64,000 bases of DNA from Hyphomonadaceae bacterium (GCA_041398325.1 JAWKUX010000014.1:20596-84595), one strand, 5' to 3'. Positions 8,119-54,814 are shown, numbered from the stretch's first letter. A program made the numbers and translations. Notes: generated from the letters alone by a model not told the origin.

Positions 8119-8997
8119 TCACTCGAGCGGAGGTGCGATGTCGTTGGTTGGAACGGACCTAAGCGTCAAGCCGCCAAGCCGTTTGGCGCGGACGTACTCG
8201 CGAGGAGTTAGACCGGTCATGCTTCGAAATTCCCTCGTCGCATGCGGCTGATCTGCATAGGCGACTGGTGTTTCGGCGTGGGGATCTGCCTCCCACGGCA
8301 TATCGTGAAGCTGGCGTATTGTGCGATCGACCCGAACAGCACGCTGGTAGACCTTCGGCGCCACACCGTAGAGATCAGCAAACACGCGGCGATATTGACG
8401 CGATGATAGATTCGCGGCCGCCGCAGCGCGTGAAACTGCTCCGCTCTCAACCGTCGCCAAGATATCGAGCGTCGGTGCAAGCGGGTCAGGTTCAGATTCT
8501 TGAAAGAACGCGCGCAGGACAATCGCTGCACGAGTACGCCAAGCTTCAAATGTTTCACTTGCCCTGGGCTCAAGTGTTTCGGCCAGCACAGGCTGCACTT
8601 CTCGAAGGTCCAAGACGCCATCCACGAGCTGCGACGCGGGGCGCTGGCTAATCCGCCTCAGGCCGGCGGCGGACAATCCGACCGCAAATGCCTTGATCCG
8701 CCCGGCGGCGAAACCATAACACCAGTGATATCTTGGGCCCCATAAAGCTATGCGCGGCAGGCGCTTCCATCCAGCATCAGGGCTGGCCTCTCGCAGCCAA
8801 TAGGACTGATCTAACATGATCTGAATCGAAAATCTGACCTCGGGAAGGACACGAACAACTTGTGGCCCTGGATCTTCGTCGCGATGCACGAAGCCAAACA
8901 AATTGCCCGCGAGCTCGGCGGGGGGATGGCTCAGAACCAGCGCACCTCGCGCAATGTCCGATTTCTTCAAGCCCGTACGCGTAGGGTCGGCTACCAT
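8119..8997 (-). CDS. AraC family transcriptional regulator
   Basis: C-terminal AraC HTH (SSRQYRRVFADLYGVAPKVYQRAVR...EFRSMTGLTPREYVR). Start assigned to the ATG at 8995-8997 to avoid overlap with the divergent gene. Confidence 0.7.
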   Translation of the reverse strand: MVADPTRTGLKKSDIARGALVLSHPPAELAGNLFGFVHRDEDPGPQVVRVLPEVRFSIQIMLDQSYWLREASPDAGWKRLPRIALWGPRYHWCYGFAAGRIKAFAVGLSAAGLRRISQRPASQLVDGVLDLREVQPVLAETLEPRASETFEAWRTRAAIVLRAFFQESEPDPLAPTLDILATVESGAVSRAAAAANLSSRQYRRVFADLYGVAPKVYQRAVRVDRTIRQLHDMPWEADPHAETPVAYADQPHATREFRSMTGLTPREYVRAKRLGGLTLRSVPTNDIAPPLE

Positions 8998-9083
8998 TGG
9001 CAGGAGCTTGCAAGCCGGGAGGACATCAGATTCATAGCGAACAATCGTCCCAGCTGTCTCGATGGCAGGCGAGCGCCACCGCT

Positions 9084-9877
9084 GTGGCCGTTTCCGCCGC
9101 ACTGGCCTATTCGACCGTCAGCGGAGATTTACTGGCGCCCCTGGTCAGGGTCGAGCCTCTTCGCGCCGTTCCGTACCTGGGCTCAGCGCTCATCTCGCTC
9201 GGAGACGCGTTTGCTTTGGTTGTCCTCGTCGCGCTCGCCGCAGGAAGATCGCCACGATTGGCGATTAGCCAAGCGGGCCTGCAGGCCTCAATTAGCAAGC
9301 CGGCTCTGTGGGCGCTTATTTGGCTGGTCCCTGCAATTGCAGTTGGGATGGCGTTCGCGAAAATTGCGACTGACGTGCACCCTTCCGACATCGCGTGGGC
9401 GGGCGTCGGTGGCCCGATCGCGGAGGAATTTGTCTATCGTGGACTGGCGCTGGGCGTCCTTATTCGCTGGTGCGGTTGGCCAATCTGGTTGGCGTGCATC
9501 TGGCCGGCTGTCTTCTTTGGCGCTGCCCATTTCGCCCAGGGAGAAGATTGGGGCAGCGTCGCTGGCATCGTGGCAATCACAGGCTTGGGTGGAGTTCTTT
9601 TCGGCTGGCTGTTTGTGCGATGGCGCTTCAACGCTGGCCGGCAATCCTCTTGCACGTCGGCCTGAATACAATCTGGCTGTTGTTCGACCTTGGGGAAAAC
9701 GCGCTCGGCGGTTGGCTCGGAAACGTCCTGCGTTTGACCGTCATCGCTATTGCGGTCGGAGCGACGTTTTGGCTGGCGCCCGCGCGCGGGCCAAGGCCGC
9801 CAGCTAGGCAAATTCCAGTTCTCGCGTGCATCGCAAGGAGTGGCATCAGTCTGCAATGGGCCAGAAACGGCCCTTAG
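9084..9877 (+). pseudogene. CPBP family intramembrane metalloprotease (CAAX protease-like), frameshifted near 9628-9635
   Basis: EEFVYRG (motif 1) and FFGAAHF (motif 2) are in the 8997 frame. The HVGLN region (motif 3) is in the 9395 frame. A 1-nt indel is implied. Start uncertain (GTG 9084). Confidence 0.5.
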
Positions 9878-12696: not shown

Positions 12697-15402
12697 ATGC
12701 TGAACCTCGCCAAGCAGATTTTCGGCTCCGTCAACGAGCGCAAGGTGCGCCACTTGAAGCCGATGGTTCAGCGCATCAATGCGCTGGAGCCCACCTTCGA
12801 GGCACTCTCGGACGAAGCTCTCCGAAATAAGACAAGCGAGTATCGCCACCGCCTGGCCCGGGGCGGCAAGATTGATGAAGTGCTGCCTGAAGCGTTCGCG
12901 ACTGTCCGCGAGGCCGGAAAACGCGTGCTCGGCATGCGCCACTTCGACGTGCAGTTGATGGGCGGCATGATGCTGCACCAGGGCAAGATCGCCGAAATGC
13001 GCACAGGCGAGGGCAAGACGCTGGTCGCGACCCTGCCGACCTACCTGAACGCGCTTGAGAGCCGCGGCGTCCACGTCATCACCGTCAACGACTACCTCGC
13101 CAAGCGCGACAGCGAGTGGATGGGCCAAGTCTATCGCTTCCTCGGCCTCAGCGTCGGCGTCATCGTTCACGGGCTTTACGACAACGAGCGCCGCCAGGCG
13201 TACGCGGCGGACGTCACCTACGGCACGAACAACGAGTTTGGCTTCGACTATCTGCGCGACAACATGAAGTACTCGCTGGGCGAGATGGTTCAGCGCGGCC
13301 ACCGGTACGCGATCGTCGACGAAGTCGACTCGATCCTGATTGACGAAGCGCGCACGCCGCTCATCATCTCGGGCCCAACCGAGGACCGCAGCGAGTTCTA
13401 CAAGTCGGTCGATGCGATCATCCCGCTGCTGCGGCCTGAGCACTTCGAGCATGACGAGAAGCAACGTTCGGTGACGTTCACAGAGGCGGGCTCGGAGCGC
13501 ATCGAGGAAATGCTGGTCGAGCGTGGCCTGCTGCAGGGCTCGCTCTACGAGCCCGCGAACATCACCATCGTCCACCATGCCAACCAGGCGCTGCGCGCGC
13601 ACAAGCTGTTCACGCGCGACAAGGACTACATCGTCAAAGACACCGAAGTTGTTCTGATCGACGAATTCACCGGTCGCATGATGGCTGGCCGTCGTTTGTC
13701 GGAAGGTCTGCACCAGGCGATCGAAGCCAAGGAAGGCGTGCAGATCCAGCCCGAGAACCAGACGCTCGCGTCGATCACGTTCCAGAACTACTTCCGCCTC
13801 TACGACAAACTCGGCGGCATGACCGGTACGGCGTCGACCGAAGCCGCCGAATTCGGCGACATCTATAAGCTCGATGTCGTTGAGGTGCCGACCAACCGTC
13901 CCGTGAAGCGCGAGGACGCGGACGATGAAGTTTATCGGACGGCGCGCGAAAAATACAAAGCCGTCATAGCCGACATTGAAGAGACGCACCGTCGCCAGCA
14001 ACCGGTGCTCGTCGGCACGGTGTCGATCGAGAAGTCGGAATTCCTCTCGAATATGCTGAAGCAGCGCGGCATCCCGCACCAGGTGCTGAACGCGCGCTAC
14101 CACGAGCAAGAAGCGCAGATCGTTGCGCAAGCCGGCGTGCCGGGCGCGGTGACGATCGCCACAAACATGGCTGGCCGCGGCACCGACATTCAACTCGGCG
14201 GCAACGTCGACATGCGTTTGAAGGCGGCGCTGAAGGGCGATGAGACGCCTGACCAGATTGCGCAGCTGAAGCGCCAGATCACGGTCGACATCGAGCAGAA
14301 GAAACGCGTCGCGCTGGAAGCGGGCGGCCTTTACGTGCTCGGCACCGAGCGCCACGAAAGCCGCCGCATTGATAACCAGCTGCGCGGCCGTACCGGCCGT
14401 CAGGGCGACCCTGGCAAGTCGAAATTCTACATCTGCCTTGAGGACGATTTGCTGCGCATCTTCGCGGCCGAGCGTCTGGACGCCATCATGCGCAGCCTCG
14501 GTATCCAAGAGGGTGAGGCGATCATTCACCCGTGGATGAACAAGGCGCTCGAAACGTCGCAACGCCGCGTCGAACAGCGCAACTTCGAAATCCGCAAGAA
14601 CCTGCTGAAGTACGACGACGTTATCAACGATCAGCGCAAGGCGATCTTCGAGCAGCGCATCGAGTTCATGCGCACCGCCGATGTCGCGCCGATCGTGAAG
14701 GATATGCGCCACGACGTGGTCGAAAAGCTCGTTTGGCGGCACATGCCAGAGAAGGCGTATCCGGAGCAATGGAATACGCCGGAGCTGATGACGGAAGCGG
14801 AAGAGATTTTCGGCTTCACCACGCCGGTTGATGCATGGGCGCGCGAAGAAGGTATTGCGCAGCAAGAGATCATTGAGCGCCTGACGCGCGAAGTGGATCA
14901 AGCATACGCGCAGAAGGCTGCGATGCTCGGGCCGGAGCGCCTGCGCGCGGTTGAGAAGCAGGTCCTGCTCAGCGTCGTCGACATGCGTTGGCGCGAGCAC
15001 TTGTCGTTCCTGGATCACCTGCGTTCGGTCATCCATTTGCGTGGCTACGCGCAGCGCGATCCGCTGAACGAGTTCAAGACCGAAGCGTTCACGCTATTTG
15101 AGCGTATGCTCCTGGACCTGCGCACGACGATCACGCGAATGTTGCTGCGTCTGCAAATCGGCCAGGCCGACGAAGCAGCGCTGGCGCCGCGCGCGCCGAC
15201 GCAGACCTACGAGGAGCACCGCAACTTCGATACTGGCGAAAACGAAATGGCGCGCCGCGAGGACATTCCATCGCTCGCGCCGGACGGTTTCGACCGGAAC
15301 AATCCGACGACGTGGGGCAAGGTCTCGCGCAACGCGCCGTGTCCGTGCGGCTCAGGCAAGAAGTTCAAGTATTGCCACGGCCAAGAGGCCGCGACCGCTT
15401 AG
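12697..15402 (+). CDS. secA: Preprotein translocase ATPase SecA
   Basis: [17 protein letters not shown]..., Walker A (MRTGEGKT), C-terminal zinc finger ([14 protein letters not shown]). ATG at 12697; the track ORF begins at GTG 12691. Confidence 0.95.
15369..15401. repeat. 33-bp direct repeat copy 1 (secA 3' end, attL-like)
   Basis: gtattgccacggccaagaggccgcgaccgctta is identical to 17111..17143. Confidence 0.75.
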
Positions 15403-15427
15403 GGGCCACGATTTAAAAGACATTTAA

Positions 15428-15472
15428 CGGTTGTCCGACACAGTCTGACGATGTCAGACAGTGTCGGACAAC
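15428..15472. other. 45-bp near-perfect palindrome (21-bp arms, 3-nt loop, one mismatch) immediately downstream of secA/attL
   Basis: ggttgtccgacacagtctgac-gat-gtcagacagtgtcggacaacc, with no following T-run. Confidence 0.45.
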
Positions 15473-15525
15473 CAGTGAGGATCCCAAAATGAGTCTTCCG
15501 AATCTGCCTCAGCCGCGCCCTGTCG

Positions 15526-16992
15526 TCATTCCGCGTCGGAAACGGACATCGTAATTTCCGAAACGTCGAAGTAACGGCGCCAACCCGCCTCCAGCCGCCA
15601 CTCCAAGCACGCATTAGCGGCCATTGCCTCGGTTTGGGGCGCCACTCCGACTGACGCGACGCATTTTTCGATGCCTCTACGTATGGCCTCGCGTGTCGAG
15701 CCAAAAACAATTTCAAGAAGTCCTTCGGCGTCCATCAAGGCTGATGCGATGTTGGGCAGAGTCTTGATCTTGGGGTCGCTTAAGCACTCGCGGCATTCAT
15801 GCTCGATCTTGCTCCGCTTGGACTCACTCGCCGTTGGTAAGAGTAGCTCCATGTCGAGCAGATGGCTCATTCGATTGAAGCGCACGTACGCCAAGTCGCT
15901 TTGTGCGAGGCTTGCGGCTTTGGGGTCCGCAAGCGGCGCGCTCAGATCGCGAATTAATTGGTCCGAGAAGTGGATTGCCTTTCGCAAGTCGCCAGCGACG
16001 TAGAATGTGAACGGGATTTGGAGTGTTAGCCGCTTCTTTTCGTTGGTCCAGGGCTCATCCCGCAGCAGGCGCACGAACCGCTCAGCGTGTATGCCGATGA
16101 ATTTTGACAGATCGCCAAGTCTACGCCCGCTTCCGGCCCGTGTTGCTAGCAGCCAGGCATGCTTCACGTCATCAACGTGTTGATCTCCAAGGGCGGCTAC
16201 CTCCTCCATTAGCTTCTCTATTCGTCCGCTTCCGATCGTCTCGGTCTCTGCTTGTTTGCGCAACGCATCAATCTTCTTCCAGAGTTTGGTGATCTTTCGG
16301 TTCTTGAGATCCAACAGTGGCTCGATGTCCGCCGAAGACTCCGTGAAGAACTGTTCGCAACTCGCGTCGAACGCTCGCGTCTCGAGCATGTGACGCGACC
16401 AAATCATGTTGCGCACAGAAATGCTCTGTTGCTCGATGCCATCCAATGTCATTCCCACGGCAGTGACAAGGCGGGGAATTCTGGAGTTGAGGTTGCCTCC
16501 GGGCTTGTAGGTAAGGTCATGCATCTTCGACGCCCAGGCGTCATGGAGCACGGTCTTGACTTGTACCTCACATAGGAAGTCATCATTTGATGCGAAGGTT
16601 TGGTGAGTTGCGTAGTAACCTTCGATTTTTGGCTCTGCTTGCGCGACGGCGCGCACCCCAATGCGTCGTAGATCAGACTCAAGGACACGTAGAACGTCGA
16701 GTGGCTGATCCGGATATTGCACGACAATCGTGAGTCCTACGATATCGTGGAGCCGTTTTATTTTCCCGTCATCGAGCGGAAGTTGATCGTACAGTTTGTC
16801 AAAGATCTTTGAGGCGTCTTTGATCTCCGAATCGTTCTGCTTTTCCTTTCGGGAGTAGATGCGATAAATGTAATTGGCCCCCATTTGCCGTTTCAGGTTC
16901 TTGGCTGTCGTTCTGATTTTGTCGAGGAGATCTTCGTAGCTTCTAGTGTGACGATGCAAGAATGCTTCGATGATCATAAGATCGTTGGACAT
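15526..16992 (-). CDS. RelA/SpoT-like (p)ppGpp-synthetase-fold nucleotidyltransferase fused to a ~290-aa unknown C-terminal domain (candidate toxSAS/CapRel-like)
   Basis: Motifs DIVGLTIVV, GYYATHQTF and EVQVKTVLHDAWASKMHDLTYK match the Rel synthetase signatures (GYRSLH, EIQIRTxxMxxWAExxHxxYK). Low-GC codon usage. 488 aa. Confidence 0.6.
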   Translation of the reverse strand: MSNDLMIIEAFLHRHTRSYEDLLDKIRTTAKNLKRQMGANYIYRIYSRKEKQNDSEIKDASKIFDKLYDQLPLDDGKIKRLHDIVGLTIVVQYPDQPLDVLRVLESDLRRIGVRAVAQAEPKIEGYYATHQTFASNDDFLCEVQVKTVLHDAWASKMHDLTYKPGGNLNSRIPRLVTAVGMTLDGIEQQSISVRNMIWSRHMLETRAFDASCEQFFTESSADIEPLLDLKNRKITKLWKKIDALRKQAETETIGSGRIEKLMEEVAALGDQHVDDVKHAWLLATRAGSGRRLGDLSKFIGIHAERFVRLLRDEPWTNEKKRLTLQIPFTFYVAGDLRKAIHFSDQLIRDLSAPLADPKAASLAQSDLAYVRFNRMSHLLDMELLLPTASESKRSKIEHECRECLSDPKIKTLPNIASALMDAEGLLEIVFGSTREAIRRGIEKCVASVGVAPQTEAMAANACLEWRLEAGWRRYFDVSEITMSVSDAE

Positions 16993-17110
16993 GGCTCGCG
17001 CCTAGCCTTCCTTTGGGTGTTTCCGGGCACACTATTGAAGCTTGCTGTTTTGTACAGCTTTGGTGTGCGGGAGCGGCGCTGGGGATCGCTTTCCTGTTTC
17101 GAGAGCCTTC

Positions 17111-17143
17111 GTATTGCCACGGCCAAGAGGCCGCGACCGCTTA
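17111..17143. repeat. 33-bp direct repeat copy 2 (attR-like)
   Basis: Identical to 15369..15401. Its last 3 nt (TTA) form the stop codon of the convergent gene 17141..17977. Confidence 0.75.
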
Positions 17144-17977
17144 ACGCCGCGAGGGCTGGAAGGTGAGCGGCTGATCCGTTGGGATCGCGCTTGTGATCCG
17201 GTAGGTCAGCGCGCCATCGGCTAACGATTGCAGCTCGATCTGCGCGCCATTGAAGGCGAGCGTGCGCGGCATGTTGGCCGCTTGCACAGAGTCGCGCTGA
17301 TCGCTGATCGCCACGGCAGCGTCGCCTTCGCGTGAGCGCAGATCAACAATTGCTGTTTCGCCAACAATGCGCGCTGTGAGTTCGAGTTCAACCGGCGCAA
17401 TACGGTGTGTTTGCAGAGGCGTGTATGGCGCCGGAGAGGGGATGGGGCTGACCGAGATCGTCACTGCGCCGCCGCTGATATGCGGCGTGGCCGGCGTTTC
17501 CCAGGCGCCGCTGACGGCGCGCGTTGGTGTGACATTGAGCTGAATGAAGGCCAGGTGGTCGAAAACGCGATCGCCATTGCCATCGGCAAGGCACGCGCGC
17601 GTGATGAGCGGCGGGCGGATGGGGCTGTAGGTCGTTGTCTCCCTCTGCACAGCGCAGAAGAGACGAAGGTCGCGTCGCTGCACGAGCAGAAGCGGAAAGA
17701 GTTCCGTCCCTGGCGCGATCGCTAGCGAGATCGAAGCGTTGCCCACCGGGATCGATCCTGCGACCGGCGCATCAACGCGGACGACGCCGATGACGTTCGC
17801 TTGCTGCGTCAGCAGAGCGGTTGTTCCAGTTGCTGTTTGCGGTTCGGTGCTGATTTCGACGGGCTGCGGCGCCAGAACTGGCGTGGCGGCGTCGCTCACC
17901 GTTTGCGGCGGCGTCGTTTGCGCCATGAGTAGTGGCGCGAGCAGCAGCGTGGCCAGTCCTGGCATGCGGCGTTTCAT
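17141..17977 (-). CDS. Secreted hypothetical protein (signal peptide)
   Basis: MKRRMPGLATLLLAPLLMAQ signal peptide with GGAG upstream. Thr/Pro-rich mature protein. Confidence 0.55.
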   Translation of the reverse strand: MKRRMPGLATLLLAPLLMAQTTPPQTVSDAATPVLAPQPVEISTEPQTATGTTALLTQQANVIGVVRVDAPVAGSIPVGNASISLAIAPGTELFPLLLVQRRDLRLFCAVQRETTTYSPIRPPLITRACLADGNGDRVFDHLAFIQLNVTPTRAVSGAWETPATPHISGGAVTISVSPIPSPAPYTPLQTHRIAPVELELTARIVGETAIVDLRSREGDAAVAISDQRDSVQAANMPRTLAFNGAQIELQSLADGALTYRITSAIPTDQPLTFQPSRR

Positions 17978-19380
17978 TGGGCGCCTGCGAGCTCCGTTAG
18001 CAGCACATGCCACTGCGTGAGGCCATTGTAGAAGCTGTCCACGGGCACGCGCTCATTGAGCCCATGGGCGAAATCGTCGTTGTCACTGATGAAGATGGCG
18101 CCAACGCCGTAGGTCGGGATGCCGGCGGCGCGGAAGAAGATGCCGTCGGTTGCGCCAGCCGACATGTAGGGAGACATAACGGCATTCGGGTAGTTGACGT
18201 GCACTGCGCGTGCGGTGGCTTGCATCACGTCGGGACGCAATGGCGAAGCGTCGCTCGAGTTAGACGGCCCGAGTTGCGTGACCTCGACCTTGTTGCCGGC
18301 GATGGCGCGAAGTTCAGCCAGCACATCATTCACAGCGACGCCTGGGAAGATACGGCAGTTTACGGTGGCGCTCGCGCTCTGCGGCAGGGCGTTTTCGGCG
18401 TGGCCGCCGGCCAACATGGTGGCGACACAGGTGGTGCGCATCATCGCGGAAAGCGAAACGTTGCGCGACAGCGTGCGCGCGGCGACGCGATCACCGGGGT
18501 TTTCTGCAAAGCGGCGAAGTGCTGCGCCCTCAGCGCCCGGAAACGCGCGCGCGGCGTTGCGGAAGCTCTCGATCGTGGTTTCGTTCCACATGATCGGGAA
18601 CTGGAAAGCGCGCAGCCGGGCAAGCGCATCGCCGAGATCGTAGATGGCGTTGTCTTCGCGCGGCTGCGAGGAGTGGCCGCCGGGATTGCGCGCTGTGAAG
18701 GTAAAGCTGGCGTAGGTCTTCTCTGCTGTCTGCAGGACGTAGGCGATGCCGCGATTGTTGCCGTCGAGTTGGCCGCCGCCAGCGTCGGAGTTGAGCGCAT
18801 ACTCAGCGTTGCCGAGCAGGTCGCGATGATTGGCGAGCAAGGCTTCAGTCGTTGCGCCGGTGGTTTCTTCGTCACCCGAGAACCAGATGATGAGATCGCG
18901 CGTGGGCACGAAGCCTTCGGCGCGGAGCGTCAGGAAGGTCGAGGTGAGTTGAGCAATGCCGCCCTTGTTGTCGATTGTGCCGCGGCCAAAGAAGAAGCCG
19001 CGCTCCTCAATGAGCGTGAACGGATCGCGCTCCCAGTCGGTACGCAGCGCGGGTACCACGTCCATGTGCGCGAGCAGCAAGATAGGACGGCCGCCTGAGC
19101 CGTTACCGCGATAGCGGACGAGCAGGCCCGCTGTGCCATTGAGCGGTAGGACGTGAACGTCTTCGGCAGCAAATCCCGCGTTGCGAAAGAGGCCTGCGAG
19201 ATAGTCGGCCATGGCAGGGGTCTGGCCGCCATCGACGGACGTGTCGAAGGCGATGACGCGTTGGTAGATGTCGCGCGCTTGCCCGCGCTGCGCCTCGCTC
19301 GGCGCTTGTGCCGAAGCCGCGCTGCCCAAGCCGCAGAAAAAGACGGCGCTCAGCAGCAGCGCCCGAACCCAATCGCCCAT
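17974..19380 (-). CDS. M20/M25/M40 family metallopeptidase (signal peptide)
   Basis: LLLAHMDVVP, FGRGTIDNKGG and GDEETG metal-binding motifs. N-terminal signal peptide. Confidence 0.85.
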   Translation of the reverse strand: MGDWVRALLLSAVFFCGLGSAASAQAPSEAQRGQARDIYQRVIAFDTSVDGGQTPAMADYLAGLFRNAGFAAEDVHVLPLNGTAGLLVRYRGNGSGGRPILLLAHMDVVPALRTDWERDPFTLIEERGFFFGRGTIDNKGGIAQLTSTFLTLRAEGFVPTRDLIIWFSGDEETTGATTEALLANHRDLLGNAEYALNSDAGGGQLDGNNRGIAYVLQTAEKTYASFTFTARNPGGHSSQPREDNAIYDLGDALARLRAFQFPIMWNETTIESFRNAARAFPGAEGAALRRFAENPGDRVAARTLSRNVSLSAMMRTTCVATMLAGGHAENALPQSASATVNCRIFPGVAVNDVLAELRAIAGNKVEVTQLGPSNSSDASPLRPDVMQATARAVHVNYPNAVMSPYMSAGATDGIFFRAAGIPTYGVGAIFISDNDDFAHGLNERVPVDSFYNGLTQWHVLLTELAGAQ

Positions 19381-19457
19381 GAGAATCCCCAATCGTTCCG
19401 GGCATCGTGGCCCGAGGGTTAGCGCTTTGGCAAGGGATTGGGCGCAGGGCTAGGGTG

Positions 19458-25782: not shown

Positions 25783-26196
25783 TTACCAGTTGCGGCGCGG
25801 GCCGCGTCCGTAGCCGCCGCGGTCGGCGGCATTGCCGCTGTCGCCATCGGTGACGCCGCTTGCGGTGCGGCGCGTTGCGCCACGGCCATTGCCCGCATTG
25901 TCGGCGTTGCCGCCGGAATCGGTGTCGGTGAGACCAGTCCGGCCGCGGCCATTGGTGTTGCCGCCGAGGCCGTAACCTGCGCGGTCGGCGCCGTTGCCGC
26001 TGTCGCTGTCGGTCAGGCCGGTGCGACCGTAGCCGCCGCGGTCAGCATAGCTGCCGCTGTCGTTGTCGGTGCGGCCGGTGTAGTTCTGGGCTTCGGCTTT
26101 GCCGGTGATCATGGCCGTGGCGCCGCCAGCGATTAGCGCGCCCCCCGCGATGCGGGTCATAAAAGAACGGCGGTTGAGTTTCTTCTTGTCGGACAT
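25783..26196 (-). CDS. Tat-signal Gly/Asp-rich tandem-repeat secreted protein
   Basis: MSDKKKLNRRSFMTRIAGGALIAGGATA twin-arginine signal. At least 4 repeats of G-x-TD-x-DSG-x-x-AD-x-x-GYG. GGGGGG RBS before the ATG. Confidence 0.55.
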   Translation of the reverse strand: MSDKKKLNRRSFMTRIAGGALIAGGATAMITGKAEAQNYTGRTDNDSGSYADRGGYGRTGLTDSDSGNGADRAGYGLGGNTNGRGRTGLTDTDSGGNADNAGNGRGATRRTASGVTDGDSGNAADRGGYGRGPRRNW

Positions 26197-50005: not shown

Positions 50006-52094
50006 AGATGCGCTTCGCCAGTTCCTTGTTGACGCCCTCGACGCCTTCCAACTCCGCCAGCGCCGCGCGCGAAACGCCGCGCGCCGAGCCAAAGCGATCA
50101 AGCAGAGCGCGTTTGCGTGCGGGGCCAATGCCGCCGATTTCATCGAGCGGATTCTTGGCGATGCCGGCGCTGCGCTTGCCGCGATGGGCGCCGATGGCGA
50201 AGCGGTGCGCTTCGTCCCGGAGCCGCTGCAGGTAGTAGAGAACCGGGCTCTTTTCGTCGAGCCGAAACGCCGGCTTGCCTGGAATGAAGAAACGCTCACG
50301 GCCTGCGTCGCGGTCCACGCCCTTGGCGATGCCGGCGATGGTGATGCGGTTCTTGAGGCCAAGTTCGTCCAGCGCTTCGAGCGCGGCGTTGAGCTGGCCA
50401 TCGCCGCCGTCGATCAGGACGAGGTCCGGCCAGGCGCCGAATTTTGTTTCGGACGCGTCGCTGTCGCGTTCCTTGGAGAAGTCGACGCCGCCGTCGCTGA
50501 CACGTCCGCCATTGTCCCTCTCCCCTTGTGGGAGAGGGTGGCCGACGAAGTCGGTCGGGTGAGGGGTGCTTGCGCTGCCGTCACCCCTCATCCGATCCTC
50601 GCTGTCGCGAGGATCACCTTCTCCCACAAGGGGAGAAGGACGATCGTCTTCTTCGCGCTCTTGCATCATCCGCGCGAAGCGGCGGCGGATCATCGCTTTC
50701 ATCATGGCGAAGTCGTCGCCGTCGAACTCTTCCGCCTTCATGTTGAACTTGCGGTACTGGTTCTTGGTGAAGCCTTCCGGCCCGGCGACGATCATCGCGC
50801 CAAGCGCGTTTGTGCCTTGGATGTGGCTGTTGTCGTAAACCTCGATCCGTTCGGGCCGCTGCGAAAGGCCGAACACTTCCGCCACGCCATCCAGCAGCTT
50901 GGCGACGCTGCCAGTTTCGGCCATGCGCCGTCCGAGTGCTTCGCGCGCATTGAGTAGGGCGGCGTCAACGATTTCGCGTTTCTCACCGCGCTCCGGCTTG
51001 CGGATCTCGACTTTGCATTCCGCGCGCACGCAGAGTGCTTCCTCGAGCAAGTCTTGATCGGTCGGTTCTATGTTGCTCAGGATGAGCTTGGGCGGCTCTC
51101 GGTCGTCATAGAACTGAGCGACAAACGCCCCGAGAATGTCTTCCGCTGACTCCTCGCCGCCGTGGCGCGGGAAGTAAGCGCGGTTGCCCCAGTTCTGGCC
51201 GGCGCGAAAGAAGAAGACCTGAATGCAGGATTGCCCGCCTTCTACATGAAGCGCGAACACGTCGGCTTCGTCGAACGTGTGCGGATTGATGCCCTGCGAT
51301 GCGCGTACGCTGGCTAACGCGCGGATGCGGTTGCGCAAGCGCGCGGCGTGCTCGAACTCCAGCCTGTCGGAGGCTTCGCGCATTTCGACCGCAAGCCGAT
51401 CCTGTAGCTCAACCGAGCGACCTTCGAGAAAGTCGACGCTATCCTTTACCAGCGCTGCATATTCGGCCTCATTCACCAAGCCGGTGCATGGCGCGGCGCA
51501 GCGTTTGATCTGATAGAGCATGCAGGGCCGTGTGCGGCCGCCAAACGTGGAATCAGAACACGAGCGCAACAGAAAAGCCTTTTGCAGCGTGTTGAGCGTG
51601 CGGTTCACGGCGCCTGCGCTCGCGAAGGGTCCGTAGAACTTGCCCTTAAAGCTCTTAGCGCCGCGATGCTTTTGCAGAACCGGGATTATGTGATCCGTGC
51701 GGATGGCGATGAACGGGAAACTCTTATCGTCCCGCATCAGCACATTGTAGCGCGGCCTGAGCCGCTTGATCATGTTCGTCTCAAGCAACAGAGCTTCCGT
51801 CTCTGTCGCCGTGACGATGATCTCCATCGACACCGTCTGGTGGATCATCCGGTAGATCGCGTTGGTGTGGCCGCGTCCTTGCGCGTACTGGCCGACGCGG
51901 TTCTTCAGGCTCTTGGCCTTGCCCACATAGAGCACCTCGCTGTCGGCCCCGATCATCCGATAAACGCCCGGCTTCATCGGCAGGCGCTTCCACGTATCGC
52001 GGATCGCCTCGATGCCCTTCAGAGCAGGCGTCGGCGCATCTTCCGTGGGCAAGTGCTCCAGCGGAGGCGTGATGGGTTTGTCGGCGCCGCTCAT
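49977..52094 (-). CDS. uvrC: Excinuclease ABC subunit C
   Basis: GIY-YIG N-terminus ([25 protein letters not shown]), UvrBC-interaction region, RNase H-like and (HhH)2 C-terminus. Confidence 0.9.
50515..50640. repeat. 126-bp complex palindromic (MITE/RPE-like) element inserted in-frame in uvrC
   Basis: 26-bp terminal inverted repeats (tccctctccccttgtgggagagggtg / caccttctcccacaaggggagaagga) with nested internal hairpins. Length is 42 codons. Confidence 0.55.
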
Positions 52095-53849: not shown

Positions 53850-53885
53850 GGCCCGCGGGAGCGATCCCGCGGGCCTTGGTCTTTC
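53850..53885. terminator. Bidirectional hairpin terminator between convergent genes
   Basis: ggcccgcggg-agcgat-cccgcgggcc followed by ttggtctttc. Confidence 0.55.
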
Positions 53886-53899
53886 AGCTACGTCGAAGA

Positions 53900-54604
53900 C
53901 TAGTCGAGAACCTTCAGGTTCACGGCCTTCGGGCCTTTGCCCTTGGTGTCAGGCAGGGTCTGGAAGTTGACCTTTTGGCCTTCAACGAGCTGCGTGAGAC
54001 CGGCGCGCTCCACGGCACTGACGTGGACAAACACGTCCGCACCGCCGCCGTCTGGCGTGATGAAGCCGAAGCCACGCGCGCCGTTGAAGAACTTCACGAC
54101 GCCATCCTGCGGATCGCCGAGCGGTGCGCGCGGGGGACGATCGCCACCGCCGAAACCACCGCCGCCGCCACGGTCGCCGCCACGGAAGCCGCCGCCACCG
54201 CCGCCGCCACGGAATCCACCGCCGCCGCCGCCGTAGCCGCCACCGCCGCCGCCACGATAGCCACCACCACCGCCGCCGCCACGATCGCCGCCGCCGAAGC
54301 CGCCGCCGCCGCCGCGATATCCGCCGCCGCCGTAGCCGCCTCCGCCGCCGCGGTCGCCACCGCCGCCGCCCCGATAGCCGCCGCCACCGCCGCCGCCGCG
54401 GTAGCCACCGCCACCACCGCCGCCGCCGTAGCCACCGCCACCACCGCCGCCGAACCGGTCACCACCGCCGCCGCCGAAGCCACCACCGCCTACGTCACCG
54501 CCGCCAAATTCCTGATGATCACGTTCGCGGCCACGGCCACCGCGCTTTTCTTTCTTGCGGTCGTTGTTGTCGTCGTCACCACCGAAATCGTCGTCGAAAC
54601 TCAT
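53900..54604 (-). CDS. Cold-shock domain protein with long N-terminal Gly/Arg/Tyr-rich (RGG/YGG) low-complexity domain
   Basis: C-terminal [34 protein letters not shown]...GQKVNFQ. N-terminal ~160 aa of [11 protein letters not shown] repeats. Confidence 0.75.
54130..54500. repeat. Tandem GGC/GCC-type triplet repeat tract encoding the poly-Gly/RGG domain
   Basis: Seen directly as gccgccgcc... runs. Confidence 0.7.
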
Positions 54605-54814
54605 TCCACTTGTCCTGATAATAGGCCGAGGCGAACGCCATCGGCCGTGCGCACGCTTCCACGCACGCACGTCACCGCGAATTTCTGCTTTGTTGGAGAG
54701 TAAATCTTCAGCCGCACTCTGCGGAACTTCGCACCACCGCCGGTCAACACGATCGGCTCTTCACACCGCGCTTATGCGCGAGGGGATTCCCCCACGCAAG
54801 CGGCAAGTCCTAGT

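Follow-up and report, generated by a model that had tools for sequence, protein, structure and literature searches.

In a 64,000-nucleotide stretch from a Hyphomonadaceae bacterium (GCA_041398325.1 JAWKUX010000014.1:20596-84595; hereafter the window, with positions counted from its first letter), a low-GC islet carrying a single gene for a RelA/SpoT-homologue protein lies between secA and a convergent neighbour gene and is bracketed by two copies of a 33-bp sequence. Comparison with related genomes establishes that foreign DNA was inserted exactly at the secA stop codon. This insertion was a single event in the shared ancestor of the window strain and a second strain, sampled in SRR11296560. 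We propose that the islet was gained horizontally on one occasion, in a hotspot of the chromosome, and is not a dedicated mobile element, and that the 33-bp repeat is probably secondary, an explanation to which we give about an even chance of being right. The window belongs to a metagenome-assembled genome (MAG; locus tags R3C27_12865-12875 in the region of interest) whose relatives are Terricaulis/Vitreimonas-like Caulobacterales. For comparison, 80 genome loci were fetched using the SecA C-terminus and seven metagenome loci using a degenerate secA-tail pattern; all loci fetched in the analysis, 102 in total, are referred to by L-numbers.

Insertion of a foreign segment at the secA stop codon

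The target gene is recognizable as secA from its Pfam composition (SecA_DEAD, P-loop_SecA, SecA_SW, SecA_PP_bind, and SEC-C, with six Pfam domains in support). In four relatives whose SecA proteins are 94.6-96.2% identical to that of the window (L002, L004, L093, and L096), secA converges directly with a homologue of the neighbour gene, and the two stop codons overlap at TTAA. The empty sites of L002 and L096 read ...AAGTATTGCCACGGCCAAGAGGCGGCGACCGCCTAACGGCG..., with equivalent sequences in L093 and L004, and correspond to the left flank of the window joined to its right flank, minus the islet and one repeat copy. The initial annotation had placed a foreign insertion precisely at the secA stop codon and had suggested looking for relatives with secA directly convergent with its neighbour and a single copy of the tail; these four genomes show exactly that arrangement, which proves the insertion. 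All of the empty sites observed belong to other species-level relatives. The closest relative, L094 (SecA 98% identical at the amino acid level and 91% at the nucleotide level), likewise lacks the islet and carries a 61-bp spacer between the two stop codons, which do not overlap. This spacer could be the scar of an earlier insertion or deletion. Within it (L094:8583-8644) lies CGACCGCG, which also ends the L094 secA tail, a match that is statistically indistinguishable from chance.

Both genes remained intact after the insertion. The SecA protein sequence is unaltered, and the stop codon of secA, ancestrally TAA and still so in the empty-site relatives, is now TAG, made up of the final TA of the first repeat copy and the G that opens the islet. 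On the other side, the TAA stop of the convergent gene is supplied by the CGCTTA of the right junction, the final TTA of the second repeat copy being its reverse complement. The inserted segment contains one supported gene, as had been stated before, and its product matches RelA_SpoT. The base composition of the segment (53.7% GC against 63.0-63.4% in the 5-kb flanks) bears out an islet of low GC content, but the contrast was first overstated as about 50% against about 65%; values of 48-49% are reached only at the right end. Among 1,246 sliding windows, the islet ranks second and is thus approximately the lowest-GC 1.7-kb stretch of the window, and the GC content at third codon positions is 0.63 in the cargo gene compared to 0.82 in secA. 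The features of the locus are listed in Table 1.

Table 1. Coordinates of features in the window and in the comparison loci
Feature	Position	Strand	Remarks
secA, insertion target	12697..15402	+	901 aa from ATG at 12697; NCBI MEZ5958088.1
Direct repeat, copy 1	15369..15401	+	last 33 nt of secA through TA of the stop; encodes ...(K) + 10 residues
Inserted foreign segment	15402..17110	.	1,709 bp, 53.7% GC; not at the syntenic site in L002, L004, L093, L096, L094
Near-perfect hairpin	15429..15473	.	21-nt arms, 1 mismatch, 3-nt loop; 27 bp inside left junction; 53 nt downstream of cargo stop
Cargo gene, RelA/SpoT-homologue protein	15526..16992	-	488 aa; NCBI MEZ5958089.1, R3C27_12870
Non-coding stretch upstream of cargo gene	16993..17110	.	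presumed promoter region
Polymorphic patch	17103..17137	.	L001 has GGGCGCCTTCGTGAGCGACGTGCCAATGTCTGGTCGTCTGGGAT there; only terminal CGCTTA shared
Direct repeat, copy 2	17111..17143	+	non-coding save last 3 nt, the stop (TAA on - strand) of the convergent gene
Convergent neighbour gene	17141..17977 (longest ORF to 18013)	-	278 aa in the Logan call; 274 aa in NCBI MEZ5958090.1; longest ORF 290 aa
M20/M28 peptidase, right border of the variable slot after secA	17974..19392	-	Pfam; kept beside the slot in most relatives
Hotspot: TIR-TPR proteins	L003:8964-10751; L013		L013 by N-terminal sequence
Hotspot: TIR-domain proteins	L010:3824-5374; L011:3532-4815		
Hotspot: PIN toxins	L005:9296-9685; L006:8915-9322		
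Hotspot: ParE/ParD pair	L091:5018-5589		
Hotspot: other occupants	L007; L016; L017; L005		acyltransferase; MFS-like protein; DUF1217; DUF3175, respectively
Hotspot: empty interval	L008; L009; L024; L027		
Contexts of cargo homologues	L082:8001-9922; L083:909-2843; L085:8001-10203; L087:8001-9910; L098:6001-8068		

The islet is also present in a second strain, represented by a Logan contig from SRR11296560 (L001) that covers window positions 15466-19446 at about 99.6% identity outside one short patch. In this contig, the right-hand position of the islet and the neighbour gene that it adjoins are unchanged. Since L001 shares the islet, the insertion must be older than the separation of the two strains. 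Seven single nucleotide polymorphisms (SNPs) separate them in about 1.64 kb of islet and eight in about 2.3 kb of flank. The empty sites in relatives, the occurrence of the same islet in both strains, and the equal SNP density in islet and flank together show that a single event took place.

This locus provides a clean natural example in which an empty site, an occupied site, and two right junctions are all visible, with a gene spliced between overlapping stop codons and both adjacent genes undamaged. A ~1.7-kb low-GC fragment would have arrived with a solo gene similar to small alarmone synthetases (SASs), together with the upstream region and the terminator hairpin of this gene, having left a partner gene behind. 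Its point of entry would be the TTAA at which the stop codons of secA and the neighbour overlapped. Host recombination or repair functions may have made the joint through illegitimate or microhomology recombination at the short shared CGCTTA (8/9 as GAyCGCTTA), and the islet could later have spread by homologous recombination in the flanking core genes.

The 33-bp repeat and two alleles of the right junction

Within the window, there are exactly two copies of the 33-mer, GTATTGCCACGGCCAAGAGGCCGCGACCGCTTA, both on the plus strand and with no mismatch, when no match was expected (100 shuffles). The recurrence of the last 33 nucleotides of secA downstream of the gene, which the initial annotation had described as verbatim, was thus reproduced in full. 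No further near-match was found within the window at up to three mismatches, and a repeat finder returned the 33-mer as the only long exact direct repeat outside low-complexity sequence in the 64 kb. The identity between copies ends sharply, with A against C as the preceding base and G against A as the following base. Recombination between the copies would now allow precise loss of the islet.

In L001, the 33-mer is absent. The two alleles of the right junction diverge after ...CCTTCGT and rejoin at CGCTTA, which is followed by ACGCC in both; between these points, L001 carries an unrelated sequence of about 44 bp that replaces the 8 bp before copy 2 and the first 27 bp of that copy. Additional small differences between the window and L001 are clustered just left of the junction (17103-17104), and clustered small differences are often seen at repair joints. 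The L001 patch contains no word of at least 11 nucleotides matched elsewhere in the window or in L001. No approximate match to it was found, and the 102 fetched loci contained no match. Its similarity to the secA tail, the neighbour gene end, and the L094 spacer was not significant, and the patch was accordingly rejected as a homologue of the 61-bp spacer of L094. Likewise, the right end of the islet was rejected as a diverged copy of either the neighbour 3′ end or the secA tail, neither similarity being significant against shuffles.

We favour, only moderately, a secondary origin of the 33-bp repeat, as a later and lineage-specific copy of the secA tail, because the sequence of the window allele can be derived from a local template while the L001 patch needs an external source. 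According to this scenario, about 44 bp at the right junction would have been replaced in the window lineage by a copy of the secA tail, 1.7 kb away. Such a replacement might have proceeded by repair synthesis primed at CGCTTA on the secA tail and rejoined at GT, as a patch or short conversion, or by an imprecise excision that captured the secA tail and was followed by re-entry through homology. If the left junction of L001 resembles that of the window, the only "repeat" in L001 would be CGCTTA (8/9 as GAyCGCTTA).

Several points weigh against this explanation. The 3′ end of a conserved gene, perfectly duplicated over 33 bp, is just what Campbell-type or site-specific integration would generate, and 33 bp is a typical size for the identity segments of att sites. 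Exchanging about 44 bp for a 33-bp copy of a sequence that lies 1.7 kb distant would be a rare event in itself. The direction of change between the alleles is inferred from the parsimony of sequence origin, with only two carriers, and the template of the L001 patch might lie outside the window. The L001 contig also ends inside the right arm of the hairpin (window position 15466), which could reflect a drop in coverage at the hairpin or strain variation farther left, and its junction on the secA side, beyond the contig, could differ. Finally, the search covered 64 kb, and the rest of the genome could hold a recombinase gene or another copy of the 33-mer.

The reading put forward by the initial annotation, in which the repeats are the attL and attR of a site-specific integration into the secA 3′ end, is not supported by the evidence, although it keeps a lower, non-negligible probability. 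It supposes a circular element that carried a 33-bp copy of the secA tail and entered through a site-specific recombinase or through a RecA-dependent single crossover over 33 bp. The recombinase gene would never have been aboard or would have been deleted, and the junction of the sister strain would have been rewritten later. The exact repeats at both ends, of which the first copy is the secA 3′ end, agree with such an integration, as do the precise restoration of the empty site when the islet and one copy are taken out, the low GC content of the foreign DNA, and a small imperfect palindrome (CGGCC-AAGA-GGCCG) within the 33-mer. Decayed elements that keep attL and attR without integration genes are moreover a known class (PMC5704250). 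Against it, the repeat is missing from the only other carrier, L001, in which the islet is present without copy 2 (its left junction lies beyond the contig), and the L001 patch would require an external source of sequence. No recombinase gene or remnant was found inside the islet, of which the cargo ORF occupies 1,467 of 1,709 bp with about 241 bp non-coding, and the cargo module is truncated. The absence of an integrase, correctly stated at the outset, extends to the whole window, where no integrase or transposase was detected among the 20 large open reading frames (ORFs); these are housekeeping genes, including those for glutamyl/glutaminyl-tRNA synthetase, RuvB, TolB, FtsH, UvrC, and a PP-loop ATPase. 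The islet and its surroundings contain no tRNA gene.

Use of the secA tail as an att site also finds no parallel in other genomes. Within 6-8 kb downstream of secA, none of the 87 related loci contains a repeat of the secA tail by exact-word search or by Smith-Waterman alignment with shuffles, in which the window stands at z = 22 and the other loci at noise level. The first two ORFs after secA in about 60 more distant alphaproteobacteria show no recurring integrase family, and a literature search on secA as an attB site returned nothing relevant. The alternative idea that the islet was mobilised in trans as a minimal unit fared no better, since no second copy of the element was found among 5.8 billion clustered proteins, in IMG/VR, or in the 102 loci. 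The secA-tail motif and the cargo protein family had no match in IMG/VR viral contigs, and the exact SecA and RelA/SpoT proteins of the window had none in the contig index. If the att reading were true, secA would be a protein gene newly recognized as a target of integrase-less cassettes, and an excised islet would form a 1,742-bp circle with one 33-mer and the joint ...GAGAGCCTTC + 33-mer + GGGGCCACG....

Another way to make the repeat primary is to suppose that the ancestor had an L001-type patch with an adjacent 33-bp tail copy, from which the sister strain lost the 33-mer by slippage between CGCTTA hexamers while a deletion between GT dinucleotides removed the patch from the window strain. 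The shared points of divergence and rejoining of the two alleles are compatible with this scheme, in which simple deletions suffice and no outside source of sequence is needed. We nevertheless regard it as improbable: it calls for two independent deletions in the same 80 bp within about 0.4% divergence, leaves the differences at 17103-17104 unexplained, and postulates an ancestral arrangement that was found in no genome.

An assembly artefact, with an empty-site strain and an islet-bearing strain joined through a shared k-mer into a chimeric MAG sequence, has a next to negligible probability. The window does come from a MAG, the right junction differs in L001, an independent contig, and 33 is a common assembler k value. 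At the junction ...GAGAGCCTTC joined to GTATTGCC..., however, the islet end and the secA tail share only about 2 nucleotides, leaving no de Bruijn path at k of at least 21 by which an empty-site allele and an L001-type allele could give rise to it, and L001 independently confirms both the islet and its position beside the neighbour gene. We rejected the artefact on the ground that no k-mer path could produce the junction. The locus carries a caution of wider use: a tidy direct repeat can mislead as an att site, and its presence here varies between near-identical strains.

Accessory genes downstream of secA and known integrative elements

Among relatives, secA and the M20 peptidase lie between about 40 bp and 4.3 kb apart, and the DNA separating them holds unrelated cargo, including TIR-domain proteins, toxins, and other accessory genes (Table 1). 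No integrase or junction repeat accompanies these occupants. The convergent neighbour gene is itself accessory and confined to the closest relatives; it has a signal-peptide-like N-terminus and no Pfam or NCBIfam family was found for it. The interval after secA is a general hotspot for accessory genes in this clade and, in related Caulobacterales, appears to be one of the defence or toxin-antitoxin type beside an essential gene. Integrase-free hotspots between core genes have been described, and homologous recombination in the core genes on either side has been proposed to drive their turnover (Oliveira et al. 2017, PMC5635113). The secA interval likewise varies in accessory genes without mobility genes, and the islet is one more occupant, although double homologous recombination in the flanks alone leaves the 33-bp duplication at the junction unexplained. 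Overall, the evidence favours a familiar pattern, in which accessory or defence-type genes gather without mobility genes beside an essential gene.

A bolder view of the same hotspot holds that the secA tail is a docking site at which a host or helper recombinase encoded elsewhere moves integrase-less single-gene cassettes (RelA/SpoT, TIR, PIN, and ParDE, among others) in and out at the secA stop codon, the 33-bp repeat being the newest att pair and the older occupants having lost theirs. It would amount to an integron-like platform for cassettes on the chromosome, with an essential gene as its anchor. We consider it highly improbable.

Known integrative elements resemble the islet in part. cis-Mobilizable elements (CIMEs) are decayed integrative and conjugative or integrative and mobilizable elements (ICEs and IMEs) that keep attL and attR without genes for integration and transfer (PMC5704250). 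The islet is also short, integrase-less, and limited to cargo, with bracketing repeats of which one is the restored 3′ end of a conserved gene. CIMEs, in contrast, share their att sites with known ICE or IME families, which the islet does not; neither the 87 related loci nor IMG/VR yielded an element that bears a cognate integrase and uses the secA tail, and the repeat of the islet is gone in the sister strain. Islands of the SGI1 type, at the trmE 3′ end, offer a similar comparison (PMC8409611): both they and the islet sit at the 3′ end of a housekeeping gene, leave it intact, and have direct repeats, but the SGI1-type islands are tens of kb long, encode their own integrase and excisionase, occupy the same site in many genomes, and show the repeat in all carriers.

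The cargo gene, its hairpin, and its homologues

The cargo protein matches RelA_SpoT (PF04607) over residues 57-165 with 48 bits, above the Pfam gathering score (cut-off, 27). Its AlphaFold model, built from a 50-sequence alignment (predicted local distance difference test score [pLDDT], 92.8), shows an alpha/beta domain with a small-alarmone-synthetase fold at about residues 1-165, a long helix at 171-223, and an all-alpha helical-repeat C-terminal domain at 232-487. In a Foldseek search against PDB, the top 26 matches were all RelQ, RelP, or SAS structures (E values of 1e-7 to 5e-5; template modelling scores, normalized to the target, of 0.54-0.78), and a PDB profile search with the cargo sequence retrieved 2be3 at 3e-15. 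The match to CapRel was marginal (PDB 7ztb, E = 0.006) and restricted to the synthetase domain. Residues D83, E142, Q144, K146, H150, and Y162-K163 are invariant in the same 50-sequence alignment of the family, a conservation compatible with catalytic activity. Judged by domain and modelled fold, the cargo belongs to the RelA/SpoT class of SASs and falls outside the named toxSAS or CapRel families. We predict that it is active as a nucleotide pyrophosphokinase and that its helical-repeat domain is sensor-like.

The SAS fold and conserved synthetase residues of the cargo are shared with toxSAS enzymes (FaRel, FaRel2, and CapRel; PMC7229694, PMC9712102) and with RelQ and RelP. As in CapRel, one polypeptide carries both the synthetase and a non-catalytic C-terminal domain, and the position of the cargo gene among genes of the defence or toxin-antitoxin type is a further likeness to toxSAS and CapRel. 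The cargo protein differs from CapRel, RelQ, and RelP in that its C-terminal domain is a 250-residue helical repeat. No antitoxin gene is adjacent to the cargo gene in the islet, and the protein has no CapRel-like C-terminal antitoxin domain. NCBIfam returned generic sub-threshold matches only, and PADLOC gave a single weak match, to the candidate system PDC-S33, with no model of a named system fitting the cargo. On the basis of its fold, conserved residues, and neighbourhood, the cargo plausibly acts as a stress or anti-phage effector.

The cargo family is small, with 56 cluster representatives among the 5.8 billion clustered proteins, which, apart from the cluster of the cargo itself, are 24-42% identical to it (41-42% for the nearest homologue). 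All named members are from Alphaproteobacteria, and in every case the homologue has a lower GC content than its host. Of the five homologue contexts listed in Table 1, four (Bradyrhizobium, Stappia, Allosphingosinicella, and Methylobacterium) have a gene encoding about 111-124 residues that follows the cargo homologue on the same strand. Alignment of four partner proteins revealed an invariant DGNST motif together with an invariant W and an invariant C, and a weak ParB_N match (E = 0.0026) was obtained for one of the four. In these contexts, the cargo homologue is paired with a ParB_N-like small protein in place of any known toxSAS antitoxin. The SAS-like and ParB_N-like genes look like an uncharacterised candidate two-gene module, which is not among the PADLOC named systems or in NCBIfam and might be of interest for the study of alarmone toxins and phage defence. 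No ParB_N-like partner was found in the islet, where 123 bp separate the cargo stop codon from secA, or anywhere in the window, and the islet cargo looks like a fragment of such a module. Around the Bradyrhizobium, Stappia, and Allosphingosinicella homologues, a search for flanking direct repeats gave only short matches at chance level. A distant cargo homologue in L097-L102 (Methylobacterium-like, from many samples) lies between genes for an IS110-family transposase and an IS605 OrfB/TnpB protein (L097:4143-5039 and 8752-9822).

The hairpin behind the cargo gene has an RNA folding z score of -5.1 and is found neither elsewhere in the window nor in the 102 loci, and no Rfam match was detected in or near the islet. 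A hairpin occupies the equivalent position after the Stappia homologue (L085), and the one in the islet is therefore most likely a terminator or stabiliser of the cargo gene. Upstream of the cargo gene, no sigma-70 consensus was found in 16993..17110, and a small stem is located at 17088-17106, 4 nucleotides before the second repeat copy.

These structures could alternatively be taken as signs of hairpin-dependent mobilisation, with the islet as an integron-type cassette whose attC is the hairpin or as a non-autonomous IS200/IS605-like unit, the single-strand transposase of which would bind hairpins near the ends and target a short adjacent sequence, TTA or TTAA. A strong hairpin 27 bp from the left junction, the small stem at the other end, the insertion at TTAA, and the nearby IS110 and IS605-TnpB genes of the distant Methylobacterium homologue would suit such a mechanism. 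The outer bases of the hairpin, GTTGTCC...GGACAAC, have the opposite polarity to attC cores, which read RYYYAAC...GTTRRRY, so that the hairpin fails to qualify as an integron attC. Neither mechanism yields 33-bp duplications, no TnpA, TnpB, or IntI is encoded in the window, and a hairpin unique among the sequences compared, with a counterpart in the same position behind a homologue, fits a terminator. The chance that the islet moved by hairpin-dependent mobilisation is very remote, and both the attC and the IS200/IS605 readings were rejected on polarity, uniqueness, and the lack of the enzymes in the window.

Three further repeats were noted elsewhere in the window. At 25801-26077, downstream of a JmjC-domain gene, a direct repeat of about 58 nucleotides occurs four times at spacings of 57-84 nucleotides, with 60-81% identity to the reference copy, and probably forms a repetitive coding or intergenic region. 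An inverted repeat pair (50511-50540 and 50615-50644; 30 nucleotides, 90% complementary, 74 nucleotides apart, containing ...TCCCTCTCCCCTTGTGGGAGAGGG...) lies near the start of an uvrC-like ORF. At 54110-54523, within overlapping ORFs on both strands (53876..54703 on the plus strand and 53900..54670 on the minus strand), 23 overlapping copies of degenerate 9-15-nucleotide repeats of the GCC/GCCGCC type probably encode a Gly-rich or Ala/Pro-rich low-complexity protein segment.

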